DNA from: an uncultured Chromatiaceae bacterium
GTDB lineage: Bacteria; Pseudomonadota; Gammaproteobacteria; Tenderiales; Tenderiaceae
Reading direction: 5' to 3'
DNA: 64,000 bases
Assembly: GCA_945787785.1 (NCBI GenBank)
Contig: CALZIO010000005.1
Coordinates: 26,921-90,920 of the forward strand
Under the pieces are notes generated by a model. The model was not told where the DNA came from and made no database searches. It saw only the letters and a list, made by a program, of their open reading frames with translations. Position numbers and translations under genes: made by a program. Each line of letters starts with the position of its first letter. Position 1 is the first letter of the stretch. Shown in pieces: positions 3,508 to 64,000 of this stretch.

Positions 3508-3939
3508 ATGAAGGCGCGGATTAAGTGGGTCGAAAATGCCAAGTTTGTGGCCGAATCGGGTAGCGGTCATGCTGTGGTCATTGATGGCCCGCCTGACGGT
3601 GGGGGGCAAAATTTGGGTGTACGGCCGATGGAAATGCTGCTGATGGGCACTGGGGCGTGCAGCGCCTATGATGTGCTGCTGATTTTGCGCAAGGGGCGCC
3701 ATTCCGTAACAGACTGTGTATGCGAGGTGTCTGCTGAGCGGGCTGATGAAGTACCTGCAGTCTTCACTAAAATTCATCTCCATTTTATCGTGTCGGGGCA
3801 CGGTCTGAAGCAAAGTGTCGTTAAGCGGGCGGTGGAATTGTCGGCAGAGAAATACTGTTCCGCATCCATCATGTTAGGCAAGAGTGCTGAAATCAGCCAT
3901 GACTTTGAGGTCATAGAAATAGAAGGTGGAGCACTATGA
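3508..3939 (+). CDS. OsmC/Ohr family peroxiredoxin-like protein
   Basis: Motifs GVRPMEMLLMGTGACSAYDV and AEKYCSAS carry the two conserved Cys of the OsmC family. ATG at 3508 is preceded by AAAGGAG. The upstream TTG extension was rejected. Confidence 0.85.
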   Translation: MKARIKWVENAKFVAESGSGHAVVIDGPPDGGGQNLGVRPMEMLLMGTGACSAYDVLLILRKGRHSVTDCVCEVSAERADEVPAVFTKIHLHFIVSGHGLKQSVVKRAVELSAEKYCSASIMLGKSAEISHDFEVIEIEGGAL

Positions 3940-4334
3940 TCAAGCCTCAGCCGACCTCGGGTATGCGCCATGTGGCATTGTTTGCCGTTGACCTAGAGGC
4001 CAGTGAACGCTTTTATGTTGATCTGATGGGAATGCAGCTGGAGTGGCGTCCGGATCCGGACAATGTCTATCTGACTTCCGGCAATGATAACTTGGCATTG
4101 CATCGGGCGCCGGATAGTTATGACATGTCAGGCGACCAGGTGCTGGATCATATTGGATTTATTATTGATGACATCAATCAGGTCGATGTTTGGTTTGATT
4201 TTCTCCGTGGTCATGATATCGAGATGAAGACCGAACCACGCACCCACCGCGATGGAGCACGCAGTTTTTATTGTCTTGACCCGGGTGGTAACACCGTACA
4301 GATCATTCACCATCCACCAATCAGTCAAAAATAG
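3936..4334 (+). CDS. VOC (glyoxalase/bleomycin-resistance/dioxygenase) family protein
   Basis: 132 aa. MRHVALFAVDLEASERFYVDLMGM...HIGF...SFYCLDPGGNTVQI pattern typical of the VOC fold. Start overlaps the osmC stop (ATGA). Confidence 0.8.
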   Translation: MIKPQPTSGMRHVALFAVDLEASERFYVDLMGMQLEWRPDPDNVYLTSGNDNLALHRAPDSYDMSGDQVLDHIGFIIDDINQVDVWFDFLRGHDIEMKTEPRTHRDGARSFYCLDPGGNTVQIIHHPPISQK

Positions 4335-11303: not shown

Positions 11304-11483
11304 AGCCTGAATTTCTCATCACTCTCCTGCTGCGATCGCCGATCCATCTGATTTGACAGAGCGTTCTCCCTCCAGCCGGATTGACGTAGTGGCAACTACG
11401 CCTGCACCGTCTTCCGGTCCGAGCGCTCTGTCATATCAGCGCCTCGACACTCTCGCTACGAATAGTGATGAGAAATTCAGGCT
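11304..11483. repeat. 180-bp highly palindromic intergenic element (MITE/REP-like)
   Basis: Perfect 20-bp terminal inverted repeats AGCCTGAATTTCTCATCACT / AGTGATGAGAAATTCAGGCT. Inner inverted pair CTGATTTGACAGAGCG / CGCTCTGTCATATCAG. Central hairpin CGTAGT-ggca-ACTACG. Confidence 0.7.
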
Positions 11484-57251: not shown

Positions 57252-59714
57252 GTGAAGAGTTTGGGAACACGTCTGGCCCTGATTCTTTCCTCTGTATTAT
57301 TAGTACTGGTGGTTGTGGCAGGTGTATTGATCGAGCGACAGCTAACACGCGCCATTTACAATGAAGAAATCGATCAGGCGACCAGCCATGCCCAGACGCT
57401 GCTTTCCAGTCTGCGAATTCTGATGTTGAATGGCCAGGGTGTGCTGGCACGGGAATGGCTCGATAGCATGCATGGCGCACCGGGTGTCGTCGATATAGAA
57501 GTGTTACGGCGCGATGGAACGGAAGCTTTTTCAGATCTTTCCACAGTTGATCAAGTCAATAATTTTCTCGGTGACGTAGTATTTGAGCGTGAACCGAGCC
57601 CGCCAAGCCATATAGCCATGCCCAAAGAGGGTGCCTTAGAGATTGCACTCAAAGGCGAAGTCTCTTTGGATTTGCGTTTTCCTGAAGAAATCACCGTGCT
57701 CCAGCCTATCAAGGCTGATACTGAATGCCTCACTTGTCATGGCTATGATATGAATTCGTTACGTGGTGTACTAAAGTTGACCTTGTCGCGTGAAAAGGCC
57801 CTGGCACGTATTGATGCAATGCGTGTCAGCCTCTGGGCCATAGCTGCATTATTGGTATTGATTATTGCGGTCACTGTGCTGGTTGTGTTGCGTGCCAGTG
57901 TGCTAAATCCAATTAATCGCTTAAAAGATGCCATCGTTCAGGTAGGTGCTGGTGAGCGTCATGTTGAGCTACCCCAGCAGTGGCGCGATGAGCTTGGGCA
58001 GGTTGCTTCGGTGTTCAGTCAAATGCAGGAAGACCTTGTCGCAAACGAGACACGCATTCATGCCGTCACAGAGAATGCCTTCGATGCCATTATTACCGCG
58101 GATGAACATGGTATTATTGATACGATTAACCATGCAGTTGAAAAAATGTTTGCTTATGAGCCGGGTGAACTGATTGGACAAAACGTTTCTATCTTGATGC
58201 CTGAGCCATACAGCCAAGAGCATGACCGTTATATCAGTAAATATTTGATGACTGGCAAAGGCCGGTTGATCAATAATCGCGCCGAAGTAGTGGCACAGCG
58301 TAAGGATGGTTCTACTTTCCCACTTGAAATCGCCTTGAGTGAGATGTTTATCGGTGAGCGGCGTTATTATGTTGCAGTCGGGCGTGATGTGACTGAAAAA
58401 AAACGTCAGACAGCAGCCTTACAGCATCAGGCACTGCATGATGCCTTGACCGAATTACCCAATCGCACCTTGCTATCTGATCGTATACGTCAAAGTATCC
58501 TGTTGGCGCAACGCGAGCATCACCATTTGGCACTGCTGGTGATGGACCTGGATCGCTTCAAGGATATTAACGATACCTTGGGGCATCAGTACGGTGATCA
58601 GGTGTTGCAACACGTGTCCGAGCGTATGCGTGGTTGCTTGCGTGAATCGGATACTATTGCCCGCCTGGGGGGTGATGAGTTCGCGATTCTATTGCCCAAC
58701 ACAGCCTTGGATCAGGCCAAGTCCATTGCAGATAAAATTTTACACGCCATAGAAGAGCCTTTTCTGATAGGCGACCAGATACTGCATATTAGTGGCAGTA
58801 TTGGTATTACGCTTTATCCTCAGCATGGTGAAGATGAGGTTACCTTGTTACAGCGTGCCGATGTTGCCATGTACGTAGCCAAACGCGAGCATCGTGGTTC
58901 AACTATCTATGATCCATCAGCGGATCAGCATAGCTTGCGTAATCTTGCTTTATTGGGCGAGCTGCGTGGTGCAATCGAGCATGATCAGTTACTACTCCAT
59001 TTTCAACCTAAAGTTGATCTCAGTAATGGCAAGGTTTATGGCGTCGAATCGCTGGTGCGTTGGCAGCACCCCGAGCATGGCATGATGTATCCCGATGAGT
59101 TTGTGCCATTAGCAGAGCAGACGGGATTGATAGCGCCCTTGAGTCTTTGGGCCTTAAGGTCGGCCTTGAGTACCTGCCGTCATTATCGTGCTGATGATAT
59201 GGAGCTGGATATAGCGGTGAATCTTTCGGTGCGCAATCTGCAGGATTCAAATTTTCCTAACAAGGTGGCGAGTCTGGTGGATGAGCTTTGTGGTGATGCT
59301 GGCCGGCTGCGGCTTGAGATTACCGAGACTGCAATCATGGCTGATCCCGGCCGGGCACTCGAAGTGCTGAATCGCCTTAGCGCCATGGGAATCAAGTTAT
59401 CAATTGACGATTTTGGTACCGGCTATTCCTCGTTGGCCCATCTAAAACAGATGCCCGTGGATGAACTTAAAATTGATAAATCATTTGTTATCGGAATGCT
59501 AGATGATGAGAATGATGCAATGATAGTGCGTTCGGTAATTGACCTGGCCCACAACATTGGAATTAAAGTGGTGGCAGAGGGGGTAGAGAATCAACAGGTT
59601 TACGACAAACTGAAAGAAATAGGTTGCGACGCAGTGCAGGGTTATTACATGTGTCCGCCAGTGACAGCCGATGATTTGATTGAGTGGGTTAGGTGTTCGC
59701 CCTGGCGTATTTAA
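57252..59714 (+). CDS. Membrane c-di-GMP turnover protein: periplasmic CXXCH sensor loop - HAMP - PAS - GGDEF - EAL
   Basis: TM1 (res 8-27). Periplasmic loop of about 165 aa with a single CLTCH (res 159-163). TM2. HAMP. PAS (NAFDAIITADEHGII...). GGDEF (RLGGDEFAIL). EAL (LEITETAIM...DDFGTGYSSL...KIDKSF). GTG start. Confidence 0.88.
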   Translation: MKSLGTRLALILSSVLLVLVVVAGVLIERQLTRAIYNEEIDQATSHAQTLLSSLRILMLNGQGVLAREWLDSMHGAPGVVDIEVLRRDGTEAFSDLSTVDQVNNFLGDVVFEREPSPPSHIAMPKEGALEIALKGEVSLDLRFPEEITVLQPIKADTECLTCHGYDMNSLRGVLKLTLSREKALARIDAMRVSLWAIAALLVLIIAVTVLVVLRASVLNPINRLKDAIVQVGAGERHVELPQQWRDELGQVASVFSQMQEDLVANETRIHAVTENAFDAIITADEHGIIDTINHAVEKMFAYEPGELIGQNVSILMPEPYSQEHDRYISKYLMTGKGRLINNRAEVVAQRKDGSTFPLEIALSEMFIGERRYYVAVGRDVTEKKRQTAALQHQALHDALTELPNRTLLSDRIRQSILLAQREHHHLALLVMDLDRFKDINDTLGHQYGDQVLQHVSERMRGCLRESDTIARLGGDEFAILLPNTALDQAKSIADKILHAIEEPFLIGDQILHISGSIGITLYPQHGEDEVTLLQRADVAMYVAKREHRGSTIYDPSADQHSLRNLALLGELRGAIEHDQLLLHFQPKVDLSNGKVYGVESLVRWQHPEHGMMYPDEFVPLAEQTGLIAPLSLWALRSALSTCRHYRADDMELDIAVNLSVRNLQDSNFPNKVASLVDELCGDAGRLRLEITETAIMADPGRALEVLNRLSAMGIKLSIDDFGTGYSSLAHLKQMPVDELKIDKSFVIGMLDDENDAMIVRSVIDLAHNIGIKVVAEGVENQQVYDKLKEIGCDAVQGYYMCPPVTADDLIEWVRCSPWRI

Positions 59715-59887
59715 AGAGCCTCTGAACAAGTCTATGGTATCTCTGCGGAGCCTGAAACGTGCAGCTGCACGGCGTGCTTCGCAGCGAATGGCCGTAGTCC
59801 TTTGCAAGAAGCACAACACCGCAGCTGTGCGTTTCAGGCCCGCTCTGCAAGCCAGAGGTATCATAGACTTGTTCAGAGGCTCCTTAA
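59711..59887. repeat. 177-bp highly palindromic element exactly filling the gap between convergent stop codons (MITE/REP-like, probable bidirectional terminator)
   Basis: 35-bp terminal inverted repeats TTAAAGAGCCTCTGAACAAGTCTATGGTATCTCTG / CAGAGGTATCATAGACTTGTTCAGAGGCTCCTTAA (3 mismatches). Second tier GCCTGAAACGTGCAGCTGC / GCAGCTGTGCGTTTCAGGC. Third tier GTGCTTC/GAAGCAC. Confidence 0.75.
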
Positions 59888-60967
59888 TTATTCCGAGCTG
59901 GTGTCATCCTCAACTAAAGATATCGGTTTGTAGATATCCACCTTCCGAAAAAACTGATCGGCAATATAGACCCGGCCTTGTTCATCGACGTCAACCCCAG
60001 CGGGCAGCATATAATTGCCAGGTTTGCTCGACTGACCACGCTGGCCGATGACCATGAGTAATTCACCGGCCGGATTGAAGATCTGAACATTGCCAAAGGC
60101 AGTGTCGACAACATAGATATTGCCATCTCTGTCGGTGCTAATTCCTTTGGGGCTGAAAAACTGGCCGGGATAACGGCCAATAGTGCCAAAACTAAGTTTG
60201 TGGTTACCCTCTTGATCAAAGGCCTGGACGCGAAAGTTGCCTTTATCTACTACATAAACAGTGCCATCATCGGCGGTGCTGACTTGCAGGGGTAAATTGA
60301 ATTGGCCCGCTTCACTGCCGCGTTCTCCTATGGTGCTGATATGTTCACCGCTTTGGGCATCAAAGATATACAGGTGATGTTCCTGGTTATCTACGCCACC
60401 TGTATCAATGACATACACCTTGCTACCATCATTTGACACACTTAAACCGGCGGGGCGTTTAAAATAGTCCTGTCCACCAATAAAGCGCAAGAAGTTACCT
60501 TCCAGGTCGTATACTGCCACGCGCCGGGCACTCACATCGGCTACAAACACTTCGCCCTGGCTTGAGATATCAATACCGGTTGGCTTAACAAGTTGCCCAG
60601 GTTTTTCTCTGCCAAATTCTTTATATTGACTGTTATTAAGATCAAACATGATGATGGCGCGTAATACTGTATCGGTGACATAAACACGGCCCTGATAGGC
60701 AGCTACGCCATAAGGTTTTACTAGTCCCTTGATATCGTCAACGGTACCAGTGGCATAGCGGCGTAGTTTATTGCTTGCCGTGAGTGGTGCGACATTGGTG
60801 TTGTAACGTAATGAGCGTTCGAAAATGAAGCGTGGTTGATCCGGTGGCGCCGGGAACACGGGGGGTTCAAAGGCCTCTTTCGGTGGTGCGCTGCTGCAGG
60901 CCGCCAGTAAAATTGGCAGCAGCAACACGACAATATGATGTAACTTTCTATTTATTTTATGTGACAT
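59888..60967 (-). CDS. NHL-repeat beta-propeller lipoprotein
   Basis: Lipobox LLAACSS. Six NHL repeats (VYVTDTVLRAIIMFD, VFVADVSARRVAVYD, VYVIDTGG..., VYVVDKGNFRVQAFD, IYVVDTAFGNVQIFN, VYIADQFFRKVDIY). Confidence 0.88.
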   Translation of the reverse strand: MSHKINRKLHHIVVLLLPILLAACSSAPPKEAFEPPVFPAPPDQPRFIFERSLRYNTNVAPLTASNKLRRYATGTVDDIKGLVKPYGVAAYQGRVYVTDTVLRAIIMFDLNNSQYKEFGREKPGQLVKPTGIDISSQGEVFVADVSARRVAVYDLEGNFLRFIGGQDYFKRPAGLSVSNDGSKVYVIDTGGVDNQEHHLYIFDAQSGEHISTIGERGSEAGQFNLPLQVSTADDGTVYVVDKGNFRVQAFDQEGNHKLSFGTIGRYPGQFFSPKGISTDRDGNIYVVDTAFGNVQIFNPAGELLMVIGQRGQSSKPGNYMLPAGVDVDEQGRVYIADQFFRKVDIYKPISLVEDDTSSE

Positions 60968-61698
60968 GTTTCACACAGCCGCTCGGCGCCTGTTCTCAGT
61001 AACAGGTTGACGTCGGGGTTGTGAACATTATGGCAGGTGGCGCACTCCACTTTGTTGTCGTAGATTTTGACGCCATTGTCAAAACCATATTCGTGATCAA
61101 CTGGACGAAAATCACGATCCTTGTGGTTGAGCCCTGCATATTCCATCGAGATAGGATGGTCGTTTTGAAGGTCTGTGCCAATGTGTTTGATTTCGATGCT
61201 GTGGGCTGCAACGCCGTTGTGACATTTGCCGCAGTTCATCAGACTGTTGCCGCCATTCAGGCGTAAATGCAGTGAAGCATCTTCGCTGCTATTCCAAGTG
61301 TCTGGTTTAAATACTGTCATATCCACTCCCATGGTGCCATCGTGGCAAGAGAGACATAGCAGGCTGATCGGGCTGGGTGCTTTGACCTTATTATCGAGAG
61401 TGCGGGAATCATAAAGGTCGTAGGCTGTATCTACTGCGGGTGTGTAGCGATTCCAACCTGGGATGCCGCCAAGTTCAGTCGAATCGGCACCCTCCTTTTC
61501 AGGGGGTAAGTGACAATAGACACAGGGATTGCCGAAATCAGCAAAAGCGAGTCCAGGCATGGCAGTAACACCGGCCCTTTCATTGAGCCCGGTAAAATCG
61601 TGTTTGGAGCCCAGAATTGTACCGGCCTCGACAGACGCAGCTGCGACCATCATCAGGGCTGCCAAGCTAACAAAAGTTTTGGAAAAGTATTTCAACAC
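60952..61698 (-). CDS. Pentahaem c-type cytochrome (paired-CXXCH type)
   Basis: Signal peptide. 5 CXXCH (CVYCH, CLSCHDG, CGKCH, CATCH, CETCH). KHDF and DLQNDHPI blocks as in the operon cytochromes. Its last 16 nt overlap the start of the NHL gene. Confidence 0.88.
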   Translation of the reverse strand: MLKYFSKTFVSLAALMMVAAASVEAGTILGSKHDFTGLNERAGVTAMPGLAFADFGNPCVYCHLPPEKEGADSTELGGIPGWNRYTPAVDTAYDLYDSRTLDNKVKAPSPISLLCLSCHDGTMGVDMTVFKPDTWNSSEDASLHLRLNGGNSLMNCGKCHNGVAAHSIEIKHIGTDLQNDHPISMEYAGLNHKDRDFRPVDHEYGFDNGVKIYDNKVECATCHNVHNPDVNLLLRTGAERLCETCHIK

Positions 61699-61860: not shown

Positions 61861-63057
61861 ATGCGTTTTTCAATCTGTAACTCTCTGGTTTTTGGGTTGT
61901 TTTTCTCGACTTCCATATCGGTTGGCGCCGCTGAATCGGTCTCAATGGATGAGGCCGGTCAAATTTATCGGGAAAATTGTGCGGTGTGCCATGGCGATCG
62001 AGGCGATGGTGACACCCGTGCCCGCCATGGCCTGGACCCCAAGCCGCGTGATTTCACTACCCCAGGAGCTGCCGCTGAGCTGGACCGCAAACGTATGGTG
62101 ACAGCTGTTGTGCAGGGTCGCGAGGGGACTGCCATGGTGGCCTGGCATGGCCGTTTGACCATGGCCCAGATCGAGGGAGTAGTGGATTACATTCGCAGCA
62201 GTTTTATGCGATTGCCGCCTTCGGAAGAGGAGCTGGCGGTTGACGAACCGCGCCTGCAGCGAGGCCGGGAGCTTTATGAAGAACATTGCCGAGTTTGTCA
62301 TGGCGATCGTGGTAACGGCGCCACCTGGACCAACTCAGTATTGAATCCGCCGCCGCGGAACTTTACCTCGCCCCAGGCACGCCGCATTCTGACGCGTAAA
62401 CGCATGCTAGCCTCGGTTACTTTTGGCCGTAAAAACACGGCCATGATGTCTTTCTCCAGCCGCCTTCCAGAAGAAGATATCTTCGCCGTAGTGGATTATA
62501 TTCGCCAGGTTTTTATGAAGGGGCCGGTCGTGGCGGATGCGGGTATGACGGATCTTTCTTCTGGACCGGCGGGTACAGGAGACCATGCTGGACGTGGGCA
62601 TGGCCAGGCACCTGAGTCAATCGGGGTGTATGGCATGGCGCCTAATATTGGTCAGCAGGAGCAAGTGGCCAAAGTGGATATGTCGGCTCCGTTTCCTGGT
62701 GGTTTGCAGGGTGACTTTGATCGTGGCCGTGATTTCTATATGGGCAATTGCAGTACTTGCCACGGCGTGCGTGGTGATGGTTTGGGGCCGCGCTCCCATT
62801 TTATTCAACCGAAGCCACGTAATTTCCTGCACGTCGAGTCGCGCGATTTGCTCAATCGCCCGGCCCTGTTTCGTGCCATAGGTATCGGTAAGCCAGGCAC
62901 ACCAATGCCTGCCTGGAGCAAAGTGCTATCGTCGCAGCAGATTGCTGACGTCGCCGAGTTTGTTTACCAGGATTTTATTCATCCCAATCCCGATGAAATT
63001 CAACCACGCTTTGAGCCTGATCCAGAGCAGCAAGAAACTAAAAAAAAAGCGCCGTAA
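61861..63057 (+). CDS. Trihaem cytochrome c built from three class-I domains
   Basis: Signal peptide. CAVCHGDRGDG, CRVCHGDRGNG and CSTCHGVRGDG, each followed by PRDFT/PRNF and a (T)AM(P/V)AW distal-Met block. Ends ...ETKKKAP directly after an A9 run. Confidence 0.88.
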   Translation: MRFSICNSLVFGLFFSTSISVGAAESVSMDEAGQIYRENCAVCHGDRGDGDTRARHGLDPKPRDFTTPGAAAELDRKRMVTAVVQGREGTAMVAWHGRLTMAQIEGVVDYIRSSFMRLPPSEEELAVDEPRLQRGRELYEEHCRVCHGDRGNGATWTNSVLNPPPRNFTSPQARRILTRKRMLASVTFGRKNTAMMSFSSRLPEEDIFAVVDYIRQVFMKGPVVADAGMTDLSSGPAGTGDHAGRGHGQAPESIGVYGMAPNIGQQEQVAKVDMSAPFPGGLQGDFDRGRDFYMGNCSTCHGVRGDGLGPRSHFIQPKPRNFLHVESRDLLNRPALFRAIGIGKPGTPMPAWSKVLSSQQIADVAEFVYQDFIHPNPDEIQPRFEPDPEQQETKKKAP

Positions 63058-64000
63058 CTCAGACTGATTCCGTCGAGCAAATCCCGTCGACGGTAGAGAT
63101 AGCCAGCGGCAGCAAAGCCACAACGGCCTACGAAAAAGGCCGTGACCTCTATAATTATTATTGTTACTTCTGTCATGGTTACGCAGGTGATGCCAAGACG
63201 CTGGCAGCATCCTATTTGTCACCACCCCCGCGAGATTTTACTGCGACTCCAGTCGAAGAAATAACGCGCACGCGAATGATTAAGTCGGTCACTGACGGCC
63301 GCATTAATACTGGTATGGCCGGTTTTAAGACCAAGCTGAATGCAGAAGAAATAGAACTGGTAGTAGACTTTATCCGTCAAGCGTTCATGGGTAAAGACAA
63401 GCTCAATACACGCTATCACACGGAAGGCAATGGCTGGCCAAACCATGAGCGTTATGCCATCGCCTATCCGTTTGCCAAAGGTGAAATTCCGCTCGATATC
63501 CCGTCGGAGCAATTGACGCCTGAGCAGCAGCAGGGGCGGGAACTGTTTATGGCCAGCTGTATTACCTGCCACGACCGCGCCAAAGTGGAAAGCGAAGGTA
63601 TTGCTTGGGATCCGCGTGCAGTCTCTTATCCCCGCAGTGGTTATTCGCATCGCATGCCGGATGCAGTTTCAGCCGCTACGCCTTATTCAAAACATGATGA
63701 AATGCCAATCGTGAAGGGTTTGACGCCACAACAGCAGCTGGGCGAAGGGCTTTATCAGGCCAATTGCGCCTTTTGTCATGCTGCAGATGGTTCGGGGCAG
63801 AACTGGATTGGCGCCTTTCTTGAGCCCCACCCACGTGACCTGACTAATCCCGAACAGATGCAGGGAATGACTATTGATCGATTACAAACAGTTATACGTG
63901 ATGGTTTGCCAGGCACCACAATGCCGGCCTGGCGTCATGTGTTGAAAGATGAGCAGATAGAGGCTATTGCTGCTTACGTAATGCGTGTTTTTGTAAAGAG
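63058..64000 (+). CDS. Further class-I cytochrome c domains (at least 3 CXXCH) in the -1 frame, with no start codon or signal peptide. Probable continuation of the upstream gene; runs off the window.
   Basis: My own translation of the frame with codons starting at 63042: ...TQTDSVEQIPSTVEIASGSKATTAYEKGRDLYNYYCYFCHGYAGD...CITCHD...CAFCHAADGSG...GTTMPAWRHV... No ATG/GTG/TTG before the first haem motif. This frame is open only from 63042, after a TAA at 63039. Confidence 0.7.

Follow-up and report, generated by a model that had tools for sequence, protein, structure and literature searches.

A conserved run of nine A's between two cytochrome c reading frames as a candidate site of programmed recoding in uncultured Gammaproteobacteria

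How might a coding sequence for three haem-binding domains be used when it has neither a start codon ahead of its first haem site nor an export signal of its own? The question is raised by a cytochrome c locus at the end of a 64,000-nucleotide stretch of DNA (the window) from an uncultured Chromatiaceae bacterium of the family Tenderiaceae (contig CALZIO010000005.1 of assembly GCA_945787785.1). The upstream open reading frame (ORF) of this locus encodes an exported trihaem cytochrome, and a second ORF, in the -1 frame relative to the first, continues with further haem domains; the two overlap at a run of nine A's (A9). Our comparison of this junction with those of its relatives points to programmed recoding, in a polymerase or a ribosomal form, to which we assign a probability of about 0.85.

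Two cytochrome reading frames that meet at an A9 tract

The features of the locus are listed below by their positions in the window.

61861-63057, plus strand: zero-frame ORF for a 398-amino-acid trihaem class I cytochrome c, the short isoform (ORF list, Pfam and CxxCH motif coordinates)
61861-61932, plus strand: Sec-type signal peptide of the upstream ORF, MRFSICNSLVFGLFFSTSISVGAA/E (inferred by eye from the translation, with no predictor)
61978-61992, 62287-62301 and 62749-62763, plus strand: upstream haem motifs CAVCH, CRVCH and CSTCH (motif search)
63039-63041, plus strand: TAA closing the -1 frame directly 5' of the A-run (sequence)
63040-63048, plus strand: the A9 tract, putatively slippery, read AAA AAA AAA in the zero frame, with the in-phase heptamer A_AAA_AAA inside it (sequence)
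63055-63057, plus strand: zero-frame stop codon two codons past the tract, after the short isoform end ...ETKKKAP (sequence)
63042-64000, plus strand: -1-frame ORF with haem domains 4 to 6, whose TAA lies 19 nt beyond the window end (ORF list, public contig)
63162-63176, 63558-63572 and 63765-63779, plus strand: downstream haem motifs CYFCH, CITCH and CAFCH (motif search)
63276-63278, plus strand: internal ATG at which the public annotation starts a 247-amino-acid gene; position 11416 of public contig L001 is 63276 of the window (public gene calls)

The junction reads GAA ACT AAA AAA AAA GCG CCG TAA. An earlier note on this DNA had placed the A9 at the meeting point of two cytochrome frames, with the -1 frame shut just before the run by the TAA, open from 63042 to the end of the window, and lacking both a start codon before its first haem site and a signal peptide. 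All of this is borne out by the sequence: in the window, the -1 frame has no ATG, GTG or TTG ahead of the first haem site and no signal peptide. The TAA at 63039-63041 also limits a productive -1 shift to positions 63042-63054. The note had further read at least three more haem domains in the downstream frame, and hence at least six haems in a fusion. The additional domains are present, but the counts are now exact, as the same contig in public assemblies extends past the window and the frame ends shortly after it: there are exactly three downstream domains, and six haems in all.

Joined to the upstream ORF, the -1 frame would yield a hexahaem protein of 719 amino acids with the junction ...ETKKK-SAVTQTDS.... 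The calculated mass of the mature apoprotein is approximately 77 kDa for the fusion versus 41 kDa for the short form, or approximately 81 versus 43 kDa with haems. The Pfam models PF13442 and PF00034 scored above the gathering threshold in three stretches of the upstream frame and two of the downstream frame, and each frame carries three CxxCH motifs. NCBIfam gave no equivalog at its cut-off, and thus no named family for the cytochrome, and the matches in PDB and NCBIfam were to generic class I cytochrome c domains only (CcoP, c4, c552, c6). No promoter-like or terminator-like sites were found between the two frames. The signal peptide of the upstream ORF appears to be the only export signal that either reading frame could use.

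By number alone, the run is unremarkable. The 64-kb window contains one A9, compared with a mean of 1.4 in dinucleotide shuffles, so that its occurrence is within chance; its position at the frame overlap and its conservation are beyond chance, and the case is therefore built on these two properties.

The junction was identical in public data for the same species. Contigs from three different assemblies (L001-L003) encode the identical 398-residue protein and have the identical A9 junction, and the exact protein is present in four public contigs. When the hypothetical fusion was used as a query, its closest relatives (70-83% identity) were proteins of about 400 residues that match the first half only, and proteins of 620-785 residues with 37-48% identity spanned the whole query and were collinear with it over six haem domains. 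No fused or A10 allele of the window species was found among public proteins with this full-fusion query. For three of the close relatives the DNA was fetched. Their loci are syntenic with that of the window, with 75-83% amino acid identity, and each has an A9, a stop two codons on and domain 4 in the -1 frame. The three junctions are CTGGAT-A9-GCCCCTTAG, CCGGAT-A9-GCCCCGTAG and TCGGGT-A9-GTCCGCTAG; the amino acid sequence around the tract has diverged and the nine A's have been kept. Four assemblies of the species represented by locus L004, which is 83% identical to the window species, all have A9.

The junction across the cytochrome family

We surveyed 175 loci with 152 distinct junctions, of which 160 loci were added from GTDB species representatives and JGI metagenome contigs by examining the best 80 of more than 440 matches per collection. 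Haem domains 3 and 4 were located by tblastn, and the junction between them was then classified; the partial, mis-paired loci L080, L090, L127 and L147 were left out. The classes, with the number of distinct junctions in each, are as follows.

-1 frame, exactly A9: 60, with 31 GTDB species representatives (Chromatiaceae, Ca. Tenderia and unclassified Gammaproteobacteria)
-1 frame, A10: 1 (L138, in which the codon before the run ends in A)
-1 frame, A8: 1 (L068, CAA AAA AAA)
-1 frame, no run, in-phase G_GGA_AAG in the overlap: 6 (L075, L089, L152 and L169-171)
-1 frame, neither run nor heptamer: 2 (L060 and L172)
A10 with the downstream half in the +1 frame: 1 (L066)
In frame, A9 or A10 at the same linker: 7 (L037, L094, L091, L092, L093, L135 and L120)
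In frame, no run: 4
Two genes split by an in-frame stop: 66, the second gene with its own ATG and signal peptide (mostly Betaproteobacteria)

The family comprises four architectures, namely two exported trihaem proteins, a hexahaem protein, a hexahaem protein by default with an in-frame tract, and a trihaem protein by default with a putatively slippage-dependent hexahaem form. The direction of the shift is -1 in all lineages but one. The G_GGA_AAG heptamer is found together with an A-run in two further loci, L068 and L071. In the in-frame hexahaem relatives that carry the tract, both shifted frames run into a stop within 0-5 codons. These relatives appear to be the inverse configuration, in which a slip of either sign would truncate the product to a trihaem form and so yield the same two isoforms. 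The two junctions with neither signal (L060 and L172) were considered as frameshift cases and rejected, because their downstream parts possess start codons and hydrophobic, signal-like segments of their own (with a lipobox-like LAACS in L172), and they are therefore overlapping separate genes.

Nucleotide-level conservation is confined to the tract and the base that follows it. Each of the nine A's carries 2.0 bits of information and the next base, a G, 1.6 bits, compared with 0-0.8 bits in the flanks. Lysine codons elsewhere in the same ORFs are split between 765 AAA and 764 AAG, whereas 183 of 183 within the tract are AAA, and synonymous sites have reached saturation (dS greater than 1.5) between the window and the lineages closest to it. 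All 61 lineages have the tract within the frame overlap, and this overlap is short (only 16 nt in 21 of the 61, and 13-16 nt at the window), so that the shift is pinned to the A-run. Closure of the -1 frame by a T followed by the first two A's recurs wherever the codon before the run ends in T, and the zero-frame stop is exactly two codons past the run in 39 of 61 lineages. Only one lineage in 62 has a codon ending in A before the run, compared with 13.6% A at third positions; this scarcity suggests selection for a length of exactly nine A's and not only for a minimum of nine. Such homopolymers are otherwise rare: the 945 kb of fetched DNA contained 7 further runs of at least nine A or T, two of them at the junctions of partial loci.

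Of 61 lineages, 56 have a G directly after the run, with a consensus tail GCCCCnTA(A/G) at window positions 63049-63057 and their equivalents. The conserved G and tail could reflect a slippage context, the coding of Ser-Pro by the -1 frame, or selection that keeps the C-terminal tail short.

The downstream frame is conserved as protein. In pairwise comparisons, its ratio of nonsynonymous to synonymous substitution rates (dN/dS) was 0.04-0.12, versus 0.06-0.18 for the upstream ORF; in 11 of 12 pairs the -1 frame had the equal or lower value. Of the 57 lineages whose locus reaches the end of this frame, 56 have it complete with three CxxCH motifs. Between the tract and haem domain 4, none of 61 lineages has a signal-like hydrophobic segment (the highest Kyte-Doolittle mean over 11 residues was 1.70), whereas 63 of the 66 two-gene junctions exceed a Kyte-Doolittle value of 2.0 between the halves; in the latter class the second gene often has a lipobox-like motif as judged by eye. 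The downstream frame is therefore a working coding sequence under purifying selection that is unable to start alone. In Ccm-dependent cytochrome c maturation, haem is attached in the periplasm and export is required. As the downstream domains have no signal of their own, they can therefore be matured only as a continuation of the upstream chain.

These data strongly support the earlier note's view that the downstream domains are functional only if fused through a shift at the tract, as they combine 60 A9 lineages, purifying selection and the lack of a signal peptide. The comparison of A-run lengths in related strains that the note had proposed returned exactly nine A's in 60 junctions of the -1 type, ten in one and eight in one. 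The note had also named a pattern that would speak against fusion, that of orthologues with two separate genes, the downstream one with its own start and signal peptide. Such orthologues do exist in Betaproteobacteria; they represent another architecture without the A-run (no run of at least eight A's in any of 66 two-gene junctions), and they do not refute fusion in the clade of the window.

Several single loci depart from the common types. L066 (positions 3678-3687) has an A10, and its downstream half lies in the +1 frame, so that a change of one A would make the fusion in frame; this is a single contig, and may be a variant or an error. L120 (373-382) has an in-frame A10 in an otherwise A9-type context, GGC-A10-GCCCCGTAG, and is likewise a single contig that may be a variant or an error. 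L037 has two in-frame A9 runs, one between domains 3 and 4 and a second (3936-3944, ...VSQKKTRYHS...) after haem domain 4; L091 has only an A6 at the spot of the second run. In L068, a TAG stop directly follows G_GGA_AAG.

The proposed recoding and its alternatives

We propose that the locus would be expressed as one transcription unit, standard decoding of which would give the 398-residue trihaem protein. In a fixed fraction of expression events the frame would move to -1 within the A9, giving the 719-residue hexahaem protein, and the long isoform would be exported by the single N-terminal signal peptide that both isoforms share. As the main route, we give a somewhat better than even chance to slippage of RNA polymerase, which would add one A to the mRNA and so turn A9 into A10. 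A ribosomal -1 shift on A_AAA_AAA would produce the identical ...KKK-S... junction and might contribute. The cell would need the two isoforms in a defined proportion, as is the case for tau and gamma from dnaX. That slippage takes place, with what efficiency and by which molecular route, and that the ratio matters to the cell, is what we infer from the comparisons above. The two tract-bearing forms have opposite default ratios, which by analogy suggests that the cell may need both isoforms in a set proportion.

Several observations favor the polymerase. All nine A's of the run are conserved, whereas a ribosomal heptamer requires seven. The tract is also kept in the in-frame relatives, in which both shifted frames soon meet a stop. 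The +1 configuration of L066 would require the loss of one A, which polymerase slippage could supply and a -1 ribosomal shift could not. The usual stimulators of ribosomal frameshifting were sought around the A9 site. Structure was not conserved in the 60 nt on its 3' side (mean z, -0.8; median, -0.36; 21% below -2), no Shine-Dalgarno-like (SD-like) element was conserved on its 5' side, where 50 nt gave a mean z of -0.09, and Rfam gave no match at the site. In reporter assays in Escherichia coli, runs of 11, 9 and 7 A's gave 63%, 40% and 10% frameshifting, respectively (PMC3711429).

Other points weigh against this proposal. The evidence is genomic, and every A9-type locus comes from a metagenome assembly of uncultured bacteria. 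Every -1 lineage has the tract in phase 0 and hence a correctly placed A_AAA_AAA. A related sub-clade uses a heptamer that the ribosome alone could read, G_GGA_AAG, in six run-less lineages, with L068 and L071 as two more that combine it with an A-run. All eight members of this sub-clade (L068, L071, L075, L089, L152 and L169-L171) have A(C/T)GGAG about 14 nt 5' of the heptamer, which could stimulate frameshifting in the manner of the SD-like element of E. coli dnaX, or could reflect conserved T/M-E coding. A stable 3' fold (z below -2) is predicted in about one-fifth of the lineages. L120, an A9-type contig with an in-frame A10, indicates that the run has changed length in the DNA at least once, or else contains an error. 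A junction-spanning query of 101 residues returned no fused product and only three partial matches, a result that we rate as uninformative.

Because the in-phase heptamer is always present and a sub-clade of apparently ribosomal type exists, ribosomal -1 frameshifting could be the real or dominant route. The recoding and its isoforms would then be the same, with the shift occurring only or mainly on A_AAA_AAA and the mRNA unchanged. We consider this a possible but clearly less probable explanation than polymerase slippage. The G_GGA_AAG sub-clade, with its upstream GGAG, is taken here to indicate that ribosomal -1 shifting may indeed serve the gene family, and the nearly uniform -1 direction agrees with it. 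The constant phase is uninformative about the route, since the site was probably inherited from one ancestor. On the other hand, although synonymous divergence is saturated, 60 of 62 lineages retain the first two A's of the run, and the sole lineage that has lost one A (L068, A8) has G_GGA_AAG as a backup. The A9 site lacks a conserved 3' stem-loop or pseudoknot as well as a 5' SD-like element, and L066 calls for a +1-type change.

Explanations without recoding fare worse. Phase variation, by which slipped-strand mispairing in the DNA would toggle A9 and A10 and so switch the hexahaem form off and on, was one of two hedges in the earlier note, and homopolymers of this length are indeed mutable. 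In its favor are L120, the in-frame A10 form of an A9 type, and several in-frame relatives that have A10. L120, however, has only about 69% DNA identity to its nearest relative and is not a strain-level variant, and tract length is otherwise fixed within and between lineages: all 60 distinct lineages would be in the "off" state at exactly nine A's, as are the four assemblies of the window species and the four of its 83%-identical relative. The run-less G_GGA_AAG sub-clade could not vary in phase and yet keeps the same -1 junction, and the fused allele of the window species was not found in the protein collection. We therefore regard phase variation as improbable. The other hedge was an error of sequencing or assembly, with a true tract of A10 in an ordinary single hexahaem ORF. 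Homopolymers are error prone and in-frame hexahaem homologues exist, but the identical A9 recurs in many independent assemblies and species, from dozens of projects and several assemblers and sources (MEGAHIT, SPAdes, JGI, Logan), and the G_GGA_AAG lineages show the same frame break with no homopolymer. Even with a true A10, an invariant run within an unconserved linker would need an explanation, and we give error hardly any weight. Scarcely more probable is decay, in which a frameshift at a mutational hot spot would have split a hexahaem gene, leaving the downstream part as a pseudogene or as an independent product of a non-canonical start. Architectures do change within the family, as the in-frame fusions and two-gene forms attest. 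Nevertheless, the low downstream dN/dS and the haem sites, all three intact in all but one of the complete lineages, are not those of a decaying gene, and an independent product could not reach the periplasm, as the window offers no start ahead of the first haem site and none of 61 lineages has a signal peptide there.

Genomic setting, annotation and known systems

Two genes lie next to the cytochrome locus in divergent orientation.

60952-61698, minus strand: multihaem cytochrome of 248 amino acids, of the paired-CXXCH type (ORF list, Pfam)
59888-60967, minus strand: NHL beta-propeller lipoprotein of 359 amino acids (ORF list, Pfam)

The same neighbors are found in the distant loci L004-L010, L065 and L091-L093, which points to the three genes as a conserved module of periplasmic electron transfer. 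The multihaem cytochrome and the NHL lipoprotein are likely redox partners of the candidate recoded cytochrome. Their genes overlap by 16 nt (60952-60967, minus strand), which suggests translational coupling. Farther upstream, the plus strand carries ccmH, cycH and genes for a thioredoxin-like protein, a monohaem cytochrome c, two Reg_prop proteins and a PAS-GGDEF-EAL protein (57252-59714); ccmH, cycH and dsbE are a few kilobases upstream of the cytochrome locus.

A nested inverted repeat of 183 nt (59708-59890) fills the gap between the convergent GGDEF-EAL and NHL genes, which end at 59714 and 59888, respectively. Its outer arms, of 38 nt, are 89% complementary (59708-59745 and 59853-59890), and its inner arms are of 19 nt (59750-59768 and 59821-59839). 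It occurs once in the window and has no match in Rfam. In the orthologous loci L004 and L007 the gap between the same two genes is 1 and 7 nt, and the repeat therefore appears lineage specific. It looks like a hairpin or an insertion resembling a miniature inverted-repeat transposable element, or a bidirectional terminator.

The arrangement has consequences for annotation. Public gene calls for the downstream part are products of 241-295 residues, none with a signal peptide (other starts are L004 4422 and L009 4425). The calls of 241-247 residues that were checked (L001, L004 and L009) begin after the first CxxCH of haem domain 4. Because its start lies past the first haem site, the 247-residue "gene" called from the internal ATG is an annotation artefact, and one that is systematic in these metagenome-assembled genomes. 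The predicted hexahaem product is missing from every proteome, from models of periplasmic electron transfer and from the peptide databases used in metaproteomics.

We tentatively suggest, at somewhat less than an even chance, that the tract is an ancient isoform-ratio device in respiratory electron transfer. It would set the stoichiometry of trihaem and hexahaem forms, for example in a complex or wire with the neighboring multihaem cytochrome and NHL lipoprotein. The ratio would have been tuned by flipping the default, by fixing the length at nine, by swapping the signal for G_GGA_AAG, or by splitting the protein into two genes. If so, the family would provide the first example of recoding in a c-type cytochrome, together with a site at which transcriptional and translational frameshift signals are interchangeable.

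The kind of signal and its logic are already known, and the cytochrome is an added member. Poly-A runs of about nine that give two isoforms are known from Thermus dnaX, from type III secretion genes of Shigella and from insertion sequence (IS) elements. To our knowledge, programmed frameshifting in chromosomal, non-mobile genes of bacteria is limited to a handful of families (dnaX, prfB, copA, a few type III secretion system genes and some reporter-validated clusters). The present locus would add to them an exported multihaem cytochrome of many uncultured Gammaproteobacteria associated with sulfur, iron or electrodes. We found no published case of cytochrome c recoding in the literature that we searched, the coverage of which is incomplete. 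The main text of the GeneTack survey contained neither "heme" nor "cytochrome" (PMC3711429), and cytochromes occurred three times, in mitochondrial or protist contexts only, in the accessible part of a 2016 review of frameshifting and slippage (PMC5009743). The triheme cytochrome genes of Ca. Tenderia electrophaga have been described as cotranscribed with a tetratricopeptide repeat (TPR) protein (PMC5371394). A link to these "three paralogous triheme cytochromes" was dropped, as the A9 locus of L065 (Gammaproteobacteria bacterium Ga0074134) has no TPR neighbor.

The closest parallels are dnaX of Thermus thermophilus, in which slippage on an A9 yields tau and gamma, and the two-ORF poly-A dnaX genes of the GeneTack clusters (PMC3711429). 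As at the cytochrome locus, the gene is chromosomal and non-mobile, nine or ten A's lie between domains, a short and a long isoform have a common N-terminal part, and both in-frame and two-ORF configurations occur among relatives. The differences are that dnaX encodes a clamp-loader subunit rather than an exported multihaem cytochrome c, that in the clade of the window the long form would be the trans-frame one, and that recoding here is deduced from genomes. E. coli dnaX, which relies on a -1 ribosomal shift on A_AAA_AAG with an SD-like element and a stem-loop, shares with our site the in-phase lysine heptamer, the -1 direction and the presumed set ratio of two isoforms, and it resembles the G_GGA_AAG sub-clade with its GGAG about 14 nt upstream. 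Unlike it, the A9 site lacks a conserved stem-loop or SD-like element and has its heptamer, A_AAA_AAA, within a longer invariant run; moreover, the shifted product of E. coli dnaX is the shorter one.

The Shigella genes mxiE, spa13, spa33 and mxiA likewise have overlapping ORFs fused by polymerase slippage on runs of A or T, with a downstream part that lacks initiation (PMC5009743). Those sites belong to one plasmid-borne system in a narrow taxon, whereas the cytochrome site is kept across more than 60 diverged lineages with alternative configurations. The reporter-validated poly-A clusters (PMC3711429) and the orfA-orfB sites of IS elements share the type of signal, its length range and the conserved poly-A at an ORF junction; unlike the IS elements, the cytochrome gene is not mobile.

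Within the cytochrome family itself, the in-frame hexahaem homologues (P0002, P0022, P0025 and others) have six class I haem domains in the same order and show that the six-domain chain exists, and the in-frame forms L091-L093 have the same multihaem cytochrome and/or NHL neighbor. In-frame fusions without a run differ in making the long protein only, and the betaproteobacterial two-gene homologues (Noviherbaspirillum, Gallionella, Sulfuritalea) differ in making two independently exported trihaem proteins. At one and the same junction, relatives thus carry a poly-A run, a classical ribosomal heptamer or both, and others have the inverse, in-frame configuration. What sets this family apart from the known systems appears to be this natural series, in which signals of polymerase type and of ribosome type, and both default polarities, would occur at one site.

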